Below the pieces are notes generated by a model. It was not told the origin of the DNA, searched no databases, and worked only from the letters and a program-made list of their open reading frames with translations. Of a stretch of DNA of 64,000 nucleotides, positions 45,124 to 52,979 are shown in pieces. The stretch spans positions 5,376,001 through 5,440,000 of the forward strand of contig OZ244960.1 in NCBI GenBank assembly GCA_965222605.1, given 5' to 3'. Within the stretch, counting starts at the first letter, position 1. Each line of letters starts with the position of its first letter. The position numbers and the translations under genes are program-made. Source of the stretch: Candidatus Latescibacterota bacterium (lineage in GTDB: Bacteria; Latescibacterota; UBA2968).

Positions 45124-46236
45124 GTTATGCGTTGTGGGCTTCTCAATCAGGTTCGACTGCATTCTCCAAAATGGTAAATTTGCGCCAATCAGAGTCGATT
45201 TCTGCTTGAATTCTATACGGAAGAACGAACATCGGATCTGTGTGCCCGAAATCCATCTGCGTAATTATGGGGAGCGAAGTCAATCCTTCCTCGTCAGCGA
45301 CTATCTGAAGTATGGCATCGTCATAAGCATGAAACGAATCAGGCGACAACTCGTGGCCACCTGGTCTTCCAAAGAGAATCCCACTCAAAGATGGAAGAAT
45401 ATCCATCGCAGCAAGAGACCGGAAAAACCTGGTTACCGTACTTGGCGGCGGTGTTTCTTCAGACGTTTCGATAAAGAGTATCGCGCCTTCCCACACTTCC
45501 TTGTTAGGCCAAACGTCTGTACTTCTTATCCAGTCGAGAACTTCGAGGCAACCACCTATGAGGTGTCCTTCCGCTTGCCCTTCTCCCTGGAGATACTGCC
45601 AACCCGCAGAGCCTTGAAGGATCCTCTTTCTTTTTTGATTCGCAGGATTTGCCCAGTCAAGACGTTCGACGGTCCAGCCATCTCGATTCTCCGGTATTTC
45701 ACCAATATTTCCAGAATCAAATAAGGTCCGTCTAACGGAGTTCACCATGTAGGGAAACAACCCACCGTTCTCGGCAAATCCCGCCATAATTGCTGGACCA
45801 TAAAAGGAGACAATGCCCGCCTTTAGGCACGCAAAGTGGGAAACGGTCGTATCGGAATATCCCACGAAGGGCTTCGGATTATTCCTGATAAGATCAAGGT
45901 CTAGGTGACGAAGAATTCTAATCGAGTCATCGCCGCCAATAGTCGATATAATTCCTTTGATTTCTGAGTTTGAAAAGGCTTCCATCAAGTCATCCGCACG
46001 CGCTTTTGGATTCTCAAAGAGCCATTTTGGCTCTCTGAGTGTATGAGGCATCTCGATCACGACTAGGCCAAATGCTTCTTCCAGTTGCTTTTTTCCAGCT
46101 TCATATCGATGTGGAATTAGCCCCGGTCCACCCCATGACAGAGATACAGTGGCTACCTTATCTCCCTCTTGAAGCTTTGGTGGTTTAGTAAGCGATGGTT
46201 TCATTTTAGTAAATGGCGACTCCCGTTACGCATAAC
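45124..46236 (-). mobile_element. Integron gene cassette carrying the S66 peptidase, bounded by complementary attC core sites
   Basis: Minus-strand AAAAC-GTTATGCGT (46228-46241) before the gene and the exact complement ACGCATAAC (45124-45132) 11 bp after its stop. Confidence 0.75.
45143..46204 (-). CDS. S66 peptidase (LD-carboxypeptidase/MccF-like)
   Basis: STIGGDDS, GYSDTT, FYGP, GG.LE, FIETSE, DFGHTDP. Confidence 0.93.
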   Translation of the reverse strand: MKPSLTKPPKLQEGDKVATVSLSWGGPGLIPHRYEAGKKQLEEAFGLVVIEMPHTLREPKWLFENPKARADDLMEAFSNSEIKGIISTIGGDDSIRILRHLDLDLIRNNPKPFVGYSDTTVSHFACLKAGIVSFYGPAIMAGFAENGGLFPYMVNSVRRTLFDSGNIGEIPENRDGWTVERLDWANPANQKRKRILQGSAGWQYLQGEGQAEGHLIGGCLEVLDWIRSTDVWPNKEVWEGAILFIETSEETPPPSTVTRFFRSLAAMDILPSLSGILFGRPGGHELSPDSFHAYDDAILQIVADEEGLTSLPIITQMDFGHTDPMFVLPYRIQAEIDSDWRKFTILENAVEPD

Positions 46237-46372
46237 GTTTTCCGGTTTGCGAATCCGCGAAGCGGGTTGCCGAAGGGCAAGCAGCACAGCACGCACCGTC
46301 CCCCTAATTGTCTTTTATTTTTAACGCCGGGAATCTAATGGATTCGCCACTGATGTCAATCAGATACGAAGT

Positions 46373-46477
46373 TGGCAGAGGGTGTGGGAATCGAACCCAT
46401 ATACGAGATATCCTACAGGATACTCGTAGCCCTCGGTTTGGAAGCCTCGGGGCCGACACCATCGGCTCTCACCCCCT
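46373..46477 (-). tRNA. Non-canonical 8/4 tRNA (allo-tRNA-like) with long variable arm and anticodon loop CUUCCAAA
   Basis: Acceptor AGGGGGTG/CACCCTCT (8 bp)+G+CCA; T arm TGGG-TTCGATT-CCCA (4 bp); D arm GCCGA-TGGTG-TCGGC; anticodon arm CCCGAGG/CCGAGGG; 11-bp variable arm. Confidence 0.85.
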
Positions 46478-46598
46478 GCTCAATAATTCGACGATATCAT
46501 AAAATGGAATGTTTCGGCTGGGATAGGGAAGACTACACATTGTTCTTTTTGAAGTGCATCGACCGGGTTTTTCGTCGCTGCGATGAGGACTGACTTGC

Positions 46599-47861
46599 CT
46601 ATTCTGTCACAACCGCTTCAGGTGGGACACGAACTGATGACAATATCAAGTAGGTAAAGGCCATCATCATTACAGCAGCTGAAATCAATAGTGTTGCCTC
46701 CCAGCCAAAAGTTTCACCAAGGTAGCCACCTGACAACGCCGCAATCGGAATTATTCCGAATACGACAAGACGCCTGGTGGCATTAATTCTACCTAACAGT
46801 CTATCCGGAGTCACTGCTTGCCTCAGGCTAACTTGGCTTATGCTAAAGAGGGTCAACGCCAGGCTAAAGACTGCTTGGATAGCAATGACGGCAGGGAGCT
46901 TCATCCAACCGAAGTAGCCTGCAAAAGGAAGCACTCCCATCGCAATCCCCTCAAGTAGCGACGCAATGATCAACAACCAGCCTGCACCCATCCGCTTTGC
47001 AAGTGGAACAGCGGATAGGGCCCCGATAATCGAGGCACCTCCTGCAACAGATCCGATGATTCCCAGCCAGATCGGAGTAATGTCCAGGGTGCGAATAAGA
47101 AAAAGTGTCCAAACTGTATGTTGTACAGCACCTGCTGCACTTGCGAGAGCCGTCCCGATAGTCATGGCTCTCAGAATAGGGTGACTAAATAGGATCGATA
47201 TTCCCTCCTTGATGGCAGCTATCACCCCCTGGTCCATCCTGGTCTTGATATCATCAGATTCATCAAATCGGATCCTCGATAGGAGCAGACCAGATAAAAA
47301 GTACGAAACTGAATCCACAAGTATTGCCAACGGCGCACCCAGAATGTCCACAAGGTATCCAGCTGCTCCGGGTCCTGCTACATTCGTTGTTGAAGTGCTT
47401 AGCTGAAGTCGGGCATTCCCCTCGACCAGATCTTCCCGTTTCACGATGGAAGGCAAAAACGATGTCGAGGCAAGGACGTACATCATCGCGAGTGTACCAC
47501 CTGTAAAAGCCACAATATATAGCAACTCTATGGATAGCCAGCCAAACAAAGCTGCTGCAGGGACCAGACTTATGACCAATCCTTGTCCGAACGCACTCGC
47601 GACCAGTATGGGCTTTCGTTTGGCCCGATCAATCCAGACACCAGCCAAGAGTGCAAAGAGAAGTACTGGAAGATGCCATGACGCGTTGAGGAATCCCATT
47701 TCCTTCGCGCCAACCTGAAGAGTTATCACTGCAACAAGGGGGAGGGCAAGGTTGGTGACAGAAGAACCAAGATCCGAAATAGTGACTCCGCTCCAGAGCT
47801 TGGCAAAGTCAGAATTGGAGCACGCCAGCCGAAAGAGGCCGCCCTCAGATGCTCTATTCAT
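46599..47861 (-). CDS. MFS transporter (MFS_3-like efflux)
   Basis: AGVWIDR, 12 hydrophobic segments, RQAVTPDRLLGR. Confidence 0.92.
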   Translation of the reverse strand: MNRASEGGLFRLACSNSDFAKLWSGVTISDLGSSVTNLALPLVAVITLQVGAKEMGFLNASWHLPVLLFALLAGVWIDRAKRKPILVASAFGQGLVISLVPAAALFGWLSIELLYIVAFTGGTLAMMYVLASTSFLPSIVKREDLVEGNARLQLSTSTTNVAGPGAAGYLVDILGAPLAILVDSVSYFLSGLLLSRIRFDESDDIKTRMDQGVIAAIKEGISILFSHPILRAMTIGTALASAAGAVQHTVWTLFLIRTLDITPIWLGIIGSVAGGASIIGALSAVPLAKRMGAGWLLIIASLLEGIAMGVLPFAGYFGWMKLPAVIAIQAVFSLALTLFSISQVSLRQAVTPDRLLGRINATRRLVVFGIIPIAALSGGYLGETFGWEATLLISAAVMMMAFTYLILSSVRVPPEAVVTE

Positions 47862-47929
47862 TCGAAATATCCTCTATATGGTGGTTCGTCTGTTTAGTTT
47901 TTGTGGGCAATGAAACCCATCTGGTTTTT

Positions 47930-48475
47930 CTATAAGATAGTCCGTGCAATCCGAATAGAACCTTCCAAAAGAATCTCTCTGTGTTCGTCTTTCCTCTCGG
48001 TTCTCCAGTATTCTCGTGCCCTCTCAAACATTGATTCGAGAGTTTCAGACTCTTCAAAATAGCTTATGAGATCCATATTCGCAGCAAACACACGAGAGCA
48101 ATCAACAATCTCAACTTCGTAGAGTTCAGCGTCTGCTCTTTTCGAATTGAACCGTCTGGCAACACTCTCGTCTGTCCAGAGGAAGAGGCAATCAAATCGA
48201 CTTGGTCTATATGGAAACTCTCTGAGGCGCACCGCCTCCCAGGCGACTTCCAACAGGACACTTCCCGTTGAGGCCGCATCTGGAACCGTCACGGTGAGAG
48301 GACTGGTTTGCACTTTGATCAGGGTTTGGCGCATCAGATGGTCTTGAAAGTTCCCCGGTTTCACAAGGGTCCCAGAAGAAAGCCCGGACTTCGCTGACCA
48401 AAACAGTAGAGCTTCTCGACCAATATCAAGAGCCATTGTGTTGGGTGCGTCCCTGTAGTGGTTTAGTTTTGCCAC
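47930..48475 (-). CDS. DUF2441-like protein
   Basis: EAVRLREFPYRPSRFDCLF, LYEV, A.EYW, EILLEG. Confidence 0.7.
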   Translation of the reverse strand: MAKLNHYRDAPNTMALDIGREALLFWSAKSGLSSGTLVKPGNFQDHLMRQTLIKVQTSPLTVTVPDAASTGSVLLEVAWEAVRLREFPYRPSRFDCLFLWTDESVARRFNSKRADAELYEVEIVDCSRVFAANMDLISYFEESETLESMFERAREYWRTERKDEHREILLEGSIRIARTIL

Positions 48476-48514
48476 AGCTATGCCTCGCTCTTCTATGTGG
48501 GAAAGACAGCTTGC

Positions 48515-48561
48515 GTGTAACGCCTGCGCCTCGCCTCCGGTAAGCCCTACCTATGTTACGT
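48515..48561 (-). repeat. Internally shortened attC-like site
   Basis: ACGTAAC overlaps the upstream stop codon, with CAGGC-GTTACAC at the other end; only 47 bp. Confidence 0.5.
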
Positions 48562-48996
48562 CCCGCTGGCGTCGCGCAATTCTCGCTTCTTCACCATCCT
48601 GGATAGCAACGCCGATCCGACAGCTGAGACTGTGCTCAGTAGAGTCACGGAACCGATTATTACGATCCCCCACAGCCACAGCGGGAGTTCGGTATTCGCC
48701 GTCCCGACAACAAAGGGAAGCACGCCCACCAGCAGACCACTCACCGCCCCTCAGGCGCTGACTCGTGAAAGCGACAACTCAGCGAATCTGCGACGGCCCT
48801 CTGCAATCCCAAGCACTGCGGAAAAGACCGCACCGCAAAGGAAGCCCGGATACGCTCCCACCGCCACCCACATTTCCTCCATGGAATCGCTCGGGTCCAC
48901 AATCATCCCTATCAGCACACCAATCGGTGCCCATACCACGGCCCAGGTCAGGGCCATCAAGACTGCACCGCGGATACGTCTCAGCCATGTATTCAT
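48556..48996 (-). pseudogene. Membrane protein with an in-frame TGA at 48751-48753
   Basis: The two ORF-track halves are in the same frame (..LSRVSA*GAVSGLLVG..); probable TGG>TGA change. Confidence 0.75.
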
Positions 48997-49077
48997 TTGA
49001 TACCTCCCTGTGACTTGGATCTTCTCCACCAATCCTAACGATCAGATCTACGTCACGAAAACCGACTGGCAGAGCTT

Positions 49078-49533
49078 TTATTCAGACTTACGACAGGAAA
49101 AAACGACGATATCATGCTCCGATGGTTCGGTGTCCCCGTAAGCTTTCGTCGTCTGTATATCCATAAATCCTGCGGTACGTAGCATTTCTTCAAATTCAAC
49201 TGTGTCATAAAACCGTTCATTATAGTCGAACAGTTCAGTCGTAGTGAGTTCTCCATTCATATACACTTCATATTTGGTTAGGTTGCGAATGACTCGTCCA
49301 CCGTCTCTTTCAGACCATAATGAAGTAATCCAAACGGTCGAACCATCAAGCCGGTCTTCGATTTCAATTTCCGTTTCGCCTGATTTTCCAAACTCACCTT
49401 CTTCAAGTGGCGTCTTGACGTCCAGAACAAACCATCCACCGGGCAAGAGATAGTCCCAGAGTTTCTGGAGAGATTTCCGAGCAGATTCCTTTTCATAGAG
49501 ATGACCAAATGAACGGTCCGGGATGAAAATGAA
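49078..49533 (-). pseudogene. C-terminal part of a SAM methyltransferase, 5' end replaced by a GNAT gene
   Basis: IFIPDRSFGHL...YLLPGGWFVLD; motif I absent. Confidence 0.8.
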
Positions 49534-50074
49534 TCCATTTGTCCCGATACAAGAGAAATACAGACCGCTCGGGCAACATGTGGTCCTCAAATTCGCCTCT
49601 ACCCAGTCCAGGGGGTACACGCTCGATCTCCTCAAAATCCAGCCGGTGGAGAAGCCGGACAGACCGTTTGTTTGCAACAACGCATCTGGCTTCAATTTCG
49701 TCCAGATCCAAATCTTCAAAACCTACCTGCAGGATGCTTCGGACAGCCTCTGATGCAAAGCCCTGACCCCAATAAACGGGCGACAATTCGTAGCCTATGT
49801 CACCCCGCCGGCTCTCAATGCTTTCTGTGCGTATTCCGCAGTTACCGAGTAATATCCCATTTGAGCGGTCTGTGATGGCGAACTGGAACTTGCATCTCGG
49901 ACTTTCTTTGGACCATGCGATGCACTTATCTACAAAGCGGACGCACTCCTCTCTGGTGTAGGCGGGCCGGTAGTAGTATTCCAGATACCTTGGGTCCCTT
50001 CTGAACTCGACGATGGCGTCCACGTCTTGTTTGGTGAACTCCCTCAGAAGTAAGCGTTCAGTCAACTTTTCCAA
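49493..50074 (-). CDS. RimJ/RimL-type GNAT (copy 1)
   Basis: TERLLLREF, IGYEL..YWGQGFASEA, N.RS.RLL.RL; TTG start after GAGGAAGG. Confidence 0.88.
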   Translation of the reverse strand: MEKLTERLLLREFTKQDVDAIVEFRRDPRYLEYYYRPAYTREECVRFVDKCIAWSKESPRCKFQFAITDRSNGILLGNCGIRTESIESRRGDIGYELSPVYWGQGFASEAVRSILQVGFEDLDLDEIEARCVVANKRSVRLLHRLDFEEIERVPPGLGRGEFEDHMLPERSVFLLYRDKWIHFHPGPFIWSSL

Positions 50075-50150
50075 TTTGGCCTTCCTCAATTCATAGCCTC
50101 TTTTCAAAAAAAATCACATCAAACCCGGATATCTTCTGTCGTTCTATTTC
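50075..50150 (-). repeat. 3' remnant and downstream flank of the GNAT at 62752-63210
   Basis: Near-identical to 62735-62810; encodes EIERQKISGFDVIFFEKRL*. Confidence 0.88.
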
Positions 50151-50155
50151 CAAAG

Positions 50156-50893
50156 TTACATTTTTCTGACTATAAAGTATGCACGTCTGCCCAGCTCATA
50201 GGGCTCGCAATCCAGTGACGAAAAAGTATCGCACACCTCGAAACCCACCTCGGAAAAGAGAAATGTCAACTCTCGAAATCCATAGACCCGCATAGAGCTT
50301 GTCTTCGTCTCGGAAATTCCGTTCGCAACCAAAGTCCATTCATTATCAATCCGGCTCTCCGTGTGTCTGTATTTCGTGTCATCCAGGACAGTAGTTTCAC
50401 CTACTTTGCTCCAACTGCGGAGCTGGAGTCTTGGGAGTATTGTTTCTGCGACGTTGGGAATATCCAGAGCAAATCTCGAACCAGTCTTGAGCGTTCGATG
50501 CACTGCCTCGAGGAATCGCCTATTTCCGTCGTCGTCGAAGTATCCAAAACTTCCCCAAAAACAGAATGCCGCATCGAATGTCTCAATCCAGGACAGATCC
50601 CTCATATCCGTCTCAACAAGCTCAAGACCAAGATTCGCTCCTTGTGAAGCGGATTGCGCCTCTTGAAGAAGGACGGTTGTAATGTCAACGCCGGTTACTT
50701 TATAGCCTCTCTCAGCCAGAGGAATCGCCAATCTACCATTGCCACACGGCACATCGAGAACCCGACAACCTGGCTTCAAATTGAGCACGCGCACGAGGAA
50801 ATCTACCTCTTCTGAGGTACGCTCTGCTCGCATGTTTCTTTGAACGTCGAGCCAATTTCCAGAAAAAAAAGTGGTCCACCATTCAGTACTCAC
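50156..50893 (-). CDS. Class I SAM-dependent methyltransferase
   Basis: VLDVPCGNGR, DMRDL, SFGYF; GTG start with a GGAG RBS. Confidence 0.92.
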   Translation of the reverse strand: MSTEWWTTFFSGNWLDVQRNMRAERTSEEVDFLVRVLNLKPGCRVLDVPCGNGRLAIPLAERGYKVTGVDITTVLLQEAQSASQGANLGLELVETDMRDLSWIETFDAAFCFWGSFGYFDDDGNRRFLEAVHRTLKTGSRFALDIPNVAETILPRLQLRSWSKVGETTVLDDTKYRHTESRIDNEWTLVANGISETKTSSMRVYGFRELTFLFSEVGFEVCDTFSSLDCEPYELGRRAYFIVRKM

Positions 50894-51199
50894 ATTTCGT
50901 CTCCAATCTCGGATCACTTTGCCGGGGTGGGGTTGGGGGCTTTCACAGAACGACAAGCCTGAGATCAAATCATGATATATTCCGCTATCAGTTTCTTCAA
51001 CGCTTTGCCTTTTTCAGCTATCTCCTGACTCTCAAAATGTCGAATTTCAAAAAGTCTCACTAAACTCTCATAAAGATCCGCAATCTCAGAATCTCAACAA
51101 TCTGTTCATTAATCCGCTTATCATAGGCAATAGGAGTGCATCCGTATTTGTTGAATAGAAAGGCCTTCAAACATAATCCTATCTACAAGCAGGCGGCGT

Positions 51200-52222
51200 A
51201 TGCAAACATCTGAACAGACGAAGACCAACCTGAGGAGTTACGATTCCCTTACCCAAAGAGGCCAAGCTCGGCGTCTGCGCGAACTCGCGAAGTCCGCACT
51301 GCGTCAATTCGGCATTCGCGTCCATCGCCTCGAACTCATCAAGCACCTGGTCAACACGACATTCAGACTCCGATCAAGTGAAGGAGAATTTCTGGTTCGC
51401 GTGCACCGGGAAAAAAACCACACCGTTCGCCTGGTCGAATCAGAACTGGCGTGGCTCTTGGCGCTATCCAAAGAAGCCGATGTTACAGTCCAGACGCCCT
51501 ATCTCGCCCCAGACGGCAGAAGCGTTGTTTTGGCGGAGGCAGCCGGTGTGCCCAAAGCTTACCCCGTCACCGTGCTTTCATGGCTCAAAGGAAGGATCGT
51601 GCCTCAGGTGCGTCGGACAACCATGCATTACGAAGGCCTCGGGCGCCTTGTTGCCACACTACACAAACACGCGATACAGTGGGAGCCACCTGACGATTTC
51701 GAACGCCCTGTCTATGATGCCATTCATCAACTGGGAAAGCTATCAGTCCGACCCTTGCCTGAGTTAGGGCCTCGATACCTGCCCGCGTACGTCTTGAGGG
51801 ACATGGAAGCCGTCTATGAACGGCGTCAAGAAGCCGAAAAGGTGCTGGGTACTGGTTGCGAGCATTTTGGCCTGATCCACTTTGATCTCAGCTTCAGCAA
51901 TATCCTATTCTATGGCCGGGAAGCACTACCGATCGATTTCGATGCGTGTGGCTTCGGTTTTTATGCCTACGATCTCGGTGTTGCTCTGACAGGTCCCTTT
52001 GCCTACGAGAACTTTATGGCCCGATGTGAGGCTGTCTTCCGAGGCTATCGCCAGGTCCTACCTCTCAGGCGCGAATGGATCGAGTACCTCCCGACCTTCA
52101 TGGCATCTCGCACTGCTTCCTATATCTTACATGTCGCAGCGAATCCGAAGGCTGTAGAGTCACAGTGGCGCTCCCTCCTACGTCCCCTTCTTAAGGCCAC
52201 TCTTGATCAGTTTCCCTCCTGA
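51200..52222 (+). CDS. APH/homoserine kinase type II family phosphotransferase
   Basis: ESELAWL, LIHFDL...NI, IDFD. Confidence 0.88.
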   Translation: MQTSEQTKTNLRSYDSLTQRGQARRLRELAKSALRQFGIRVHRLELIKHLVNTTFRLRSSEGEFLVRVHREKNHTVRLVESELAWLLALSKEADVTVQTPYLAPDGRSVVLAEAAGVPKAYPVTVLSWLKGRIVPQVRRTTMHYEGLGRLVATLHKHAIQWEPPDDFERPVYDAIHQLGKLSVRPLPELGPRYLPAYVLRDMEAVYERRQEAEKVLGTGCEHFGLIHFDLSFSNILFYGREALPIDFDACGFGFYAYDLGVALTGPFAYENFMARCEAVFRGYRQVLPLRREWIEYLPTFMASRTASYILHVAANPKAVESQWRSLLRPLLKATLDQFPS

Positions 52223-52258
52223 TGTCCTTAGTTTCTGGTGACGAACAAACCGATTCAG

Positions 52259-52338
52259 ATATACGAGATATCCTACAGGATACCCGTAGCCCTCGGTTTG
52301 GAAGCCCTCGGGGCCAGCACCACCGGCTCTCACCCCCT
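52259..52338 (-). pseudogene. Second, 3'-truncated copy of the allo-tRNA-like gene
   Basis: Matches 46399-46477, and the upstream flank also matches to about 52401; T arm, 3' acceptor strand and CCA are absent. Confidence 0.88.
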
Positions 52339-52400
52339 GCTCAATAATTCGACGATATCATAAAATGGAATGTTTCGGCTGGGATAGGGAAGACTACACA

Positions 52401-52979
52401 TTATTTGTCTCGAAGCGCGTGGATCCATTTGTCCCGATACAAGAGAAATACAGACCGCTCGGGCAATGTGCGGTCCTCAAATTCATCTCTACCCGGTCCG
52501 GGGGGTACACGCTCAGTCTCCTCGAAACCCAGCCGGTGGAGAAGCCGGACAGACCGTTTGTTTGCAACAACGCATCTGGCTTCAATCTCGTCCAGGCCCA
52601 AATCTTCAAAACCTACCTGTAGGATGCTCCGGACAGCCTCTGACGCAAAGCCCTGACCCCAATAAACGGGCGACAATTCGTAGCCTATGTCACCCCGCTG
52701 GCTCTCAATGCTTTCTGTGCGTACTCCACAGTCACCGAGTAATATCCCATTTGAGCGGTTCGTGATGGCCAACTGGAACTTGCATCTGGGACTTTCTTTG
52801 GACCATGCGATACACTTATCTACAAAGCGGACGCACTCCTCTCTGGTGTAGGCGGGCCGGTAGTAGTATTCCAGATACCTTGGGTCCCTCCTGAACTCGG
52901 CGATGGCGTCCACGTCTTGTTTGGTGAACTCTCTCAGAAGCAAGCGTTCGGTCAGCTTTTCCATATAGATCCAGTTCAT
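52401..52979 (-). CDS. RimJ/RimL-type GNAT (copy 2)
   Basis: Near-identical to 49493-50074; start at 52979 (ATGA overlap) or 52964. Confidence 0.88.
   Translation of the reverse strand: MNWIYMEKLTERLLLREFTKQDVDAIAEFRRDPRYLEYYYRPAYTREECVRFVDKCIAWSKESPRCKFQLAITNRSNGILLGDCGVRTESIESQRGDIGYELSPVYWGQGFASEAVRSILQVGFEDLGLDEIEARCVVANKRSVRLLHRLGFEETERVPPGPGRDEFEDRTLPERSVFLLYRDKWIHALRDK

Follow-up and report, generated by a model that had tools for sequence, protein, structure and literature searches.

Allo-tRNAs are the raw material of several genetic-code-expansion tools, and we know of no established natural role for them. Conserved wild-type tRNAs with an eight-nucleotide (8-nt) anticodon loop are, to our knowledge, very rare outside mitochondria. 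Allo-tRNAs whose acceptor/T branch is split 8/4 or 9/3 function in translation in Escherichia coli (PMC5389517); those with a G3:U70 pair insert alanine there, and serine as well when the discriminator base is G73 (Mukai et al. 2017, PMC5389517). A natural 8-nt loop is found in yeast mitochondrial tRNAThr1, which carries U33a and reads triplets (PMC4267643). The classical +1 suppressors have an insertion between positions 33 and 34 (sufD) or C31.5 (SufJ) (PMC4238358). Here we describe a 105-nt gene on the minus strand of a 64,000-nucleotide stretch from a Candidatus Latescibacterota genome (contig OZ244960.1, positions 5,376,001 to 5,440,000; hereafter the window).

The gene, at 46373-46477, is real and evolutionarily maintained, and its RNA is an unusually shaped one of the allo-tRNA type, a new variant of a published oddity. 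We favor, with a probability of roughly 45%, the reading that it is a functional, separately transcribed 8/4 tRNA with the loop core U33-CCA-A37, which would read UGG and whose amino acid is ambiguous.

Structure and conservation of the 105-nt gene

Read from 46477 to 46373 on the minus strand, the sequence is AGGGGGUG AGA GCCGAUGGUGUCGGC CCCGAGG CUUCCAAA CCGAGGG C, a 27-nt hairpin, and AU UGGGUUCGAUUCCCA CACCCUCU G CCA. The minimum-free-energy (MFE) fold is an 8/4 cloverleaf of -45.0 kcal/mol (z -2.60), equalled by 2 of 200 shuffles. An earlier note, made from the letters of the window, had described an 8-bp acceptor stem, G73, an encoded CCA end, a 4-bp T stem, a 5-bp D stem, an 8-nt anticodon loop and a long variable arm, and every one of these elements is present in the sequence and in the MFE fold. 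Absent from that description is the third acceptor pair, a G3:U70 wobble. The D stem has 5 bp with an optional sixth U.G pair, and the D hairpin has six pairs in the MFE fold. In the anticodon arm, 3 + 2 Watson-Crick pairs flank the tandem G.A/A.G. The body resembles tRNA-Sec, with an 11-bp variable arm, a 5-6-bp D stem with a 3-5-nt loop, and a 7-pair anticodon stem. In the alternative 7/5 arrangement, the fifth T-stem pair is an A.C or U.C mismatch in every copy, while G8 pairs with that C. Therefore, the 8/4 arrangement is preferred.

BLAST and a covariance model made for this work located intact 105-nt copies in 11 of the 20 sister-species genomes, at 116-131 bits and with 90-94% identity. 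A twelfth genome has a 5'-deleted copy only, and the sister genus contributes one further copy with an imperfect acceptor stem. The 3' acceptor end is absent from a truncated copy in the window and is one base short in the sister-genus copy (genome G030, locus L050). In half of the genus copies, the 5' side of the anticodon stem is longer by one G, which can be taken either as a bulge or as making the loop 9 nt long. In relatives, the tandem G.A is replaced by A.A/G.A, by C.U, by a bulge or by Watson-Crick pairs, and the outer anticodon-stem pairs change from C-G to U-A. Two sister genomes have a second 105-nt copy (L031:327-458 and L032:1128-1259; 102-107 bits) with a 26-nt hairpin-forming insertion in the T loop, otherwise intact.

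Metagenome contigs were scanned with a pattern joining UCCAAAC to the T arm and acceptor end, and four matched. They hold five copies that are far more diverged (65-93 bits), including a tandem pair on a single contig. A looser pattern returned chance matches; among the 80 loci listed there is one ordinary Ser-type tRNA, which scores 25 bits with our model. No copy of the 105-nt, 8-nt-loop type was found in viral contigs.

Of the 34 pairs compared over the 12 distinct sequences, 16 show changes on both sides, and the paired fraction of cells is 92.4%. None of 500 shuffles is as high, and slid partners give 2-5 both-sided pairs. The alignment was fitted to the model, so these values lean toward the structure, and the compensations in the D stem and variable arm are visible in an unfitted MAFFT alignment too. 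The conservation of the stems among homologs, on which the earlier note had made its proposal depend, is thus accompanied by compensatory changes.

With relaxed thresholds, the only real Rfam match is to tRNA-Sec (37.0 bits, E 5.6e-6 over 351 nt; the gathering score of RF01852 is 47). Only when run with -ps40 and introns allowed (-i) does ARAGORN recover precisely these 105 nt, as a tRNA-Trp(cca) into which it forces an intron. The gene departs from bacterial tRNA-Sec in its 12-bp branch (8/5 and 13 bp in tRNA-Sec), in having no UCA and in scoring below the gathering score. It is not the selC of the organism, because a separate, true selC is present at C1:3614049-3614146 (host-genome coordinates carry the prefix C1), with 73.3 bits, an 8/5 branch and the loop CUUCAAA; ARAGORN calls it tRNA-SeC. 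The genome, a single 6.34-Mb contig of 51% G+C, has a full set of ordinary tRNAs.

That the gene is a decaying duplicate of selC, tRNA-Ser or tRNA-Trp with random indels is very improbable. The sub-threshold tRNA-Sec match, whose alignment puts one inserted C in the CUUCAAA loop, and the existence of damaged copies are in line with decay. However, the compensatory changes are not, nor is the 12-bp rather than 13-bp branch, and the 8-nt loop and acceptor stem are retained in copies down to about 65 bits (on the four metagenome contigs and in the second genus). The divergence of 20-40% argues against the diverged copies being recent transfers of one sequence. A decayed selC, an outcome that the earlier note had allowed for, therefore does not agree with the separate selC, the intact copies in sister genomes and the covarying pairs.

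Anticodon loop and amino-acid identity

Twenty-two of the 23 family hits have an 8-nt loop of the form NNUCCAAR closed by a G-C pair: CUUCCAAA in 16, CAUCCAAA in three, AUUCCAAA in two and CCUCCAAG in one. The core U-CCA-A is invariant in the 22 copies, and the two 5' loop bases vary (CU, AU, CA, CC). The earlier note had considered reading of Gly GGA by UCC, of Trp UGG by CCA, or of a quadruplet by UCCA. Reading as UCC or as the UCCA quadruplet puts A or C at position 33 in 4 of the 22 copies, whereas U33, C34C35A36 and A37 fit all 22. Therefore, U33 with anticodon CCA (Trp, UGG) is the consistent reading, as only this one keeps U before the anticodon in every copy; of the three options the comparison favors the second. 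The host tRNA-Trp is of normal length (76 nt), with the loop CUCCAAA, A1-U72 and G73. Since U33-CCA-A37 fits all copies, the loop of the 105-nt gene corresponds to a tRNA-Trp loop with one extra 5' base.

The extra base of the +1 suppressors is thus found here, and the ordinary 7-nt loop of allo-tRNAs is not, for which reason we file the gene as an allo-tRNA variant rather than a plain member. A natural +1 frameshift tRNA of the quadruplet type, whose loop would read UGG-N as one residue in programmed recoding or as a translational poison, is quite improbable. The fixed loop size and an extra base 5' of the anticodon, the position class of sufD and SufJ (PMC4238358), speak for it. However, UCCA-UGGA pairing is not the conserved reading, the base preceding U varies, and the natural 8-nt loop of tRNAThr1 reads triplets. 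No dependent gene was found, with neighbors differing between genomes and no genome-wide search made for UGG-N shift sites. The only frameshifted neighbor, a PhyH-like gene beside a member of the second family described below (C1:4238993-4239838, +1 frameshift), is intact in the sister loci (7 of 7 with a match, 10 searched). We rejected programmed recoding of this gene, as the shift is strain-specific.

The acceptor stem carries marks of more than one amino acid. The third pair is never G-C or A-U in the family while neighboring stems covary, and a pair fixed in this way is what selection on the AlaRS determinant would leave behind. The Ala determinants G2-C71, G3.U70 and G4-C69 are all present; A73, a class I body and an Ala anticodon are not (G73, long variable arm, CCA), and the host tRNA-Ala genes start with GGGG and have A73. 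The Ser-type features are the long variable arm and G73. The bacterial Trp determinants are G73, A1-U72, G2-C71, G3-C70, G4-C69, G5-C68, A9 and C34C35A36 (PMC9976931, Table 1). Taking A9 as the base following G8, 8 of 9 are present, the exception being position 3-70 (G3.U70 for G3-C70) in all copies. The class I 7/5 cloverleaf of tRNA-Trp with its 7-nt CUCCAAA loop is replaced here by the 8/4 branch, long variable arm and 8-nt loop. The genome has one gene each for AlaRS and SerRS, with no extras, and one normal gene for tryptophanyl-tRNA synthetase (TrpRS) plus a second, TrpRS-like gene.

The charging identity would therefore be ambiguous between Ala, Ser and Trp. We rank Ala/Ser slightly above Trp, because the G.U pair is under active maintenance and the anticodon stem exceeds the normal length by two pairs; judging from the complex in PMC12135181, such a stem should hinder the two-point grip of TrpRS. 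The Ser-type identity proposed by the earlier note retains its G73 and long variable arm and becomes one of three readings, next to the Ala pair and the Trp set.

Two viral contigs carry an ordinary 77-nt tRNA-Trp(CCA) (L204:1427-1503 and L224:3880-3956, the latter inside a 13-tRNA array). Its AGGGGGU/ACCCUCU acceptor stem, G3.U70 included, is that of the 105-nt gene, as is its T arm, the agreement in both arms being almost base for base. This acceptor stem therefore occurs in presumably normal Trp tRNAs. The 35 acceptor/T-pattern matches in viral contigs are mostly ordinary phage tRNA-Ser with A3-U70. Elsewhere in the host genome, ARAGORN calls an 87-nt 'tRNA-Ile(GAU)' (C1:5780692-5780778, minus strand) with a long variable arm, a Ser-tRNA-like body and an unpaired 5' acceptor strand, which is probably another irregular or decayed class II tRNA.

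If the RNA is a working tRNA, the conserved upstream box would direct transcription from A1 or an adjacent position, and the transcript would fold into a normal L shape through the canonical GG of the D loop and the UUCGAUU T loop. It would then be aminoacylated, with Ala and/or Ser first (G3:U70; long variable arm and G73) and Trp next (A1-U72, G2-C71, G4-C69, G5-C68, A9, G73, C34C35A36). The extra base 5' of U33, fixed in the family, would allow triplet reading by analogy with U33a of tRNAThr1 (PMC4267643); a degree of +1 slippage, known from sufD and SufJ (PMC4238358), may result from it as well.

A sister family and a TrpRS paralog

A second family of tRNA-like genes, 86-96 nt long and missed by ARAGORN and Rfam, has the same G3:U70 acceptor stem with a 9/3 layout and a 6-bp variable hairpin. 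The shared ends are AGGGGGUG(A)...CACCCUCU-G-CCA, and all 25 sequences compared keep A1-U72, G2-C71 and G3.U70. The host member was found by covariance model, outside the window. In the sister genomes, these genes mostly form a tandem 87 + 93 nt pair (loci L051, L052, L054, L056, L057, L059 and L061-L064). Where an anticodon loop would be expected, some form a 5-bp stem capped by four nucleotides (AUUG, ACUG or AUAU), in which the stem changes are compensatory; in others the loop measures 6 or 10-12 nt. In two members, the loop may be an 8-nt one of the same format with UCU (CAUUCUGG and CAUUCUGA). Any member of the tRNA-like families is found in 17 of the 20 sister genomes and also in four other genera. 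Across the class, the superfamily is present in 24 of 132 genomes (20 of 30 in family f1, 2 of 22 in f2, 1 of 3 in f4 and 0 of 76 in f3). The second-family genes lie in conserved synteny behind a PhyH-type gene; we do not regard this adjacency as meaningful, as the genome has 155 PhyH matches.

The TrpRS-like gene of the host, C1:1202740-1203483 (L195:3738-4484, minus strand), stands tail to tail with a GNAT gene (L195:3145-3726, plus strand). An in-frame deletion has removed about 84 residues from it, among them KMSKS and most of the anticodon-binding region. The paralog occurs as a 332-aa form with HIGH and KMGKS and as a form of about 235-255 aa without KMSKS and the anticodon-binding stretch; in two other genera, the short form is without HIGH as well. 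It is present in 21 of 21 genomes of the genus. In the class, it accompanies 23 of the 24 genomes with the tRNA-like family, the lone exception being an 88%-complete assembly, and 15 of the 108 without, a comparison that ignores kinship: related genomes are not independent, and family f3 is without both. The paralog is not linked to the tRNA genes, and its distribution is wider than, and encloses, that of the tRNA-like family. The link between paralog and RNA is a lead based on co-occurrence. We rejected the idea that the short or long form tracks the 105-nt tRNA (8 short and 4 long where it is present, 3 short and 5 long where it is absent; G015, with a damaged copy and the long form, excluded).

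These data bear on whether the 105-nt RNA decodes at all, and several observations weigh against the decoding reading. The 4-, 6-, 10- and 12-nt loops of the second family cannot decode, and the superfamily as a whole is not dependent on decoding. The anticodon stem of the 105-nt family is irregular in 21 of 22 copies (tandem G.A, A.A/G.A, C.U or bulge) and 7-8 'pairs' long, a geometry that may fit the ribosome and TrpRS poorly. A missense tRNA that puts Ala or Ser at Trp codons should be harmful, and long conservation of that function is hard to explain. The remaining 8 of the 20 sister genomes, 95-99% complete, have no 105-nt copy by BLAST or covariance model. Among the 16 genus matches, 4 are damaged: one truncated, one 5'-deleted and two with the T-loop insertion. 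ARAGORN with default settings makes no call in the window and, among the 50 genes it calls genome-wide, none at 46373-46477; Rfam at gathering thresholds has no match anywhere in the 64 kb. The only RNA library (1 of 23 runs; assembled contigs) gave one 165-nt contig over 46220-46382, which takes in the 3' trailer and just the last 10 nt of the tRNA and speaks neither for nor against its expression.

The main alternative, a serious though less probable one, is a non-decoding tRNA-like RNA, whose acceptor/T minihelix would be charged or bound and whose variable 'anticodon' arm would be a specificity module for a protein or RNA partner. Such an RNA could supply aminoacyl groups to a non-ribosomal transferase, act in regulation, or serve as a decoy presenting a tRNATrp loop to a tRNA-targeting enzyme. 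It owes its rank to the second family, whose acceptor stem, G3.U70, G73 and CCA are those of the 105-nt gene, which shows that this common acceptor end is important irrespective of decoding. The long irregular anticodon stem and 8-9-nt loop, poor for a decoder, the co-occurrence with a TrpRS paralog beside a GNAT gene, the paralog forms without KMSKS, HIGH or the anticodon-binding part, and the location of the 105-nt gene within an array that holds many GNAT, toxin-antitoxin and resistance-type genes are in accordance with it. However, an invariant U-CCA-A-R with variable 5' bases is the pattern of a working anticodon loop, no candidate partner gene adjoins more than a subset of the loci, and the co-occurrence is confounded by kinship, with the paralog more widely spread than the RNA.

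A broader proposal joins both families. They would form a private tRNA-like family with a Trp-type G3:U70 acceptor and interchangeable 'anticodon' modules, served by the TrpRS paralog and the GNAT protein, in which the 105-nt gene would be the decoding arm, reading UGG as a different amino acid or as a +1 shift. We consider this unlikely. If it were true, the family and the paralog would be a naturally evolved, near-orthogonal charging and recoding pair.

The fixed Trp anticodon and the overlapping Ala, Ser and Trp marks would make the gene a direct test of whether expanded loops decode triplets or shift frame in bacteria. They also raise the questions of how three synthetases compete for one RNA and whether allo-tRNAs are translators or something else. 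The tetraloop sister family and the co-distributed TrpRS paralog make the translator question experimentally approachable.

Genomic setting and relation to known systems

The features of the locus are collected in Table 1.

Table 1. Features of the 105-nt gene and its surroundings (window positions unless prefixed C1)
Feature	Position	Strand	Details and basis
Allo-type (8/4) tRNA gene	46373..46477	-	105 nt, CCA end encoded; sequence, fold, Rfam tRNA-Sec 37 bits, own covariance models 123-129 bits
Acceptor stem, 5' strand AGGGGGUG (A1, G2, G3...)	46470..46477	-	partner 46377-46384; A1-U72, G2-C71, G3.U70, G4-C69, G5-C68 invariant in 12/12 distinct rows
Acceptor stem, 3' strand CACCCUCU, discriminator G73 and CCA	46373..46384	-	invariant in all 21 of 23 family hits that retain this end
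D arm GCCGAU-GGU-GUCGGC	46452..46466	-	both-sided changes in 5/6 pairs among homologs
Anticodon arm, 7 'pairs' with tandem G.A/A.G, 8-nt loop	46430..46451	-	fold, homolog alignments
8-nt anticodon loop CUUCCAAA	46437..46444	-	putative U33 46442, anticodon CCA 46439-46441, A37 46438
Long variable arm, 11 bp, one bulged U	46402..46428	-	fold; both-sided changes in 7/11 pairs
T arm UGGG-UUCGAUU-CCCA, 4-bp stem	46385..46399	-	fold; outer pair U-A/A-U/G-C among homologs
Conserved upstream DNA, about 60 nt, TATTAT/AATTAT -10-like box ending 5 nt before +1	46478..46540	-	12/12 aligned copies; farther upstream unrelated
Promoter-like TTGACA-16-TAGATT, immediately 3' of the tRNA and directed toward the next gene	46332..46359	-	1 found vs 0.9 expected, alone not significant
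Second copy: upstream region and tRNA nt 1-79, cut just before the T stem	52259..52423	-	91-98% identical to 46399-46562; extra-G type
Second-family member in host genome	C1:4238736-4238822	-	outside the window; covariance model

The TATTAT -10-like box is also present upstream of the metagenome copies and is not called by a strict sigma-70 scan. Downstream, the TGATTGACATCAGTGGCGAAT block of the promoter-like region is conserved in 10 of the 12 aligned copies. Both elements are putative promoters. Conservation extends from about 60 nt upstream through about 35 nt downstream, so that the gene forms part of a module of about 200 bp between unrelated flanks. In the sister genomes, the same genes surround the tRNA in a different order, so that the module has other neighbors from genome to genome. 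Next to the tRNA gene there is no transposase, no intact integrase and no classical attC. Hence the mobility proposed by the earlier note agrees with the changing neighbors of the module and lacks the adjoining machinery. A classical integron was considered for the gene array and is not supported: an R''...R' attC pattern has four matches per strand, none well folded, and the nearest tyrosine-recombinase matches (C1:5467899-5468895, beside insertion sequence elements) are remnants 28 kb past the window, the one translated being an 84-aa C-terminal remnant.

The tRNA part of the truncated second copy occupies 52259-52338 and, with its extra G, is of the type seen in sister genomes. The two direct 165-bp copies bracket 5.86 kb (46563-52258) with APH, methyltransferase, GNAT, DUF2441 and MFS genes, which suggests that this segment was acquired by recombination within the tRNA gene. 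From this arrangement, the 105-nt gene appears to behave as a recombination point also.

A tRNA-derived structural module without an aminoacylation role, acting as an RNA processing or punctuation site with an outward promoter or as a recombination target, is distinctly unlikely. It would account for the conservation of the module as a whole (upstream box, tRNA, TTGACA-N16-TAGATT), for the bracketed segment with its break just before the T stem, and for the T-loop insertion in two other genomes. However, it leaves unexplained why the CCA end, G73, G3.U70 and the U-CCA-A loop stay invariant in copies that have diverged elsewhere, and one metagenome contig has the 105-nt-type gene among housekeeping genes (heme, ClpP, RsmB) and not in an array.

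The genes of the window are nearly all on the minus strand and mostly small and accessory: GNAT, methyltransferases, MFS pumps, NUDIX, APH, beta-lactamase-fold proteins, and toxin pairs of the MazF and HigB types. The window also encodes sulfatases and PSD/PSCyt proteins of planctomycete type. The window is a long co-oriented array with toxin-antitoxin pairs and mosaic internal repeats (GNAT gene ends three times), reshuffled between species. The open reading frame downstream of the tRNA in the sister genomes matches no Pfam family. An MbnB/TglH-like gene 3 kb away was considered and rejected, as it has no counterpart at the other loci. Downstream of the tRNA, an interval of about 50 nt (46233-46282) has about 4-22 times the summed contig depth of its flanks in three metagenome-type runs (about 4-13 times in X1, up to 17-20 in X3 and up to 22 in X7). 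Many contigs across it diverge on both sides, and three loosely similar copies exist in the genome, all in the array of the window. The interval looks like a short multi-copy element of related organisms.

The published allo-tRNAs (PMC5389517) are the nearest known relatives. In common with the 105-nt gene, they have 12 bp in the acceptor and T stems together, arranged 8/4, a body like that of tRNA-Sec with a long variable arm and extended D and anticodon stems, and G73. The published set as a whole has G73 or U73 next to the long arm, a presumed Ser identity. Further shared features are a sub-threshold tRNA-Sec match, a G3:U70 subgroup and a location in variable DNA rich in toxin-antitoxin genes. 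In the 105-nt gene itself, the 8/4 branch, the tRNA-Sec-like body, G73 with the long variable arm, and G3:U70 are all found. In contrast, anticodons vary between sister copies in the published set, whereas the present family has an obligatory 8-nt loop, a fixed CCA and a nearly complete Trp set. The present host lineage lies outside the Clostridia, Proteobacteria and Acidobacteria. The main text of that paper never mentions 'anticodon loop', Trp, UGG or planctomycetes. A full-text literature search found no such expanded-loop tRNA described; supplementary allo-tRNA sequence lists, which lay outside this search, may hold an unremarked example.

The (8/4) tRNA-Ser and tRNA-His of bacteria and phages (PMC5389517) are odd-shaped but cognate, and a Trp-charged 105-nt tRNA would follow the same idea. 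No 8/4 tRNA-Trp is described in the main text of that paper, and the present gene also has Ala and Ser determinants. The selC* tRNACys with a CysRS* that lacks the anticodon domain (Mukai 2017, PMC5389517) is similar in being a tRNA-Sec-like 8/4 tRNA in a Sec user, with a second synthetase paralog partly without its anticodon-binding part. Here, however, the paralog is not adjacent, several of its forms are without catalytic motifs, the discriminator is G73 and not U73, and the association is one of co-occurrence only.

Yeast mitochondrial tRNAThr1(UAG) with U33a has a natural 8-nt loop with the extra base directly 5' of the anticodon, but it is a mitochondrial, class I, 7/5 tRNA, in which codon reassignment goes with dedicated recognition by ThrRS (PMC4267643). 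The sufD and SufJ tRNAs likewise gain an 8-nt loop by insertion 5' of the anticodon (PMC4238358). They are laboratory mutants of ordinary tRNAs, whereas the enlarged loop of the present family is wild type and conserved, with no known +1 target. In summary, 8/4 and 9/3 allo-tRNAs, including those with G3:U70, are already published (PMC5389517); the new elements are an 8-nt loop as an obligatory feature, an unchanging CCA anticodon combined with identity elements of Trp type, the lineage, and the sister family with loops that are not anticodon loops.

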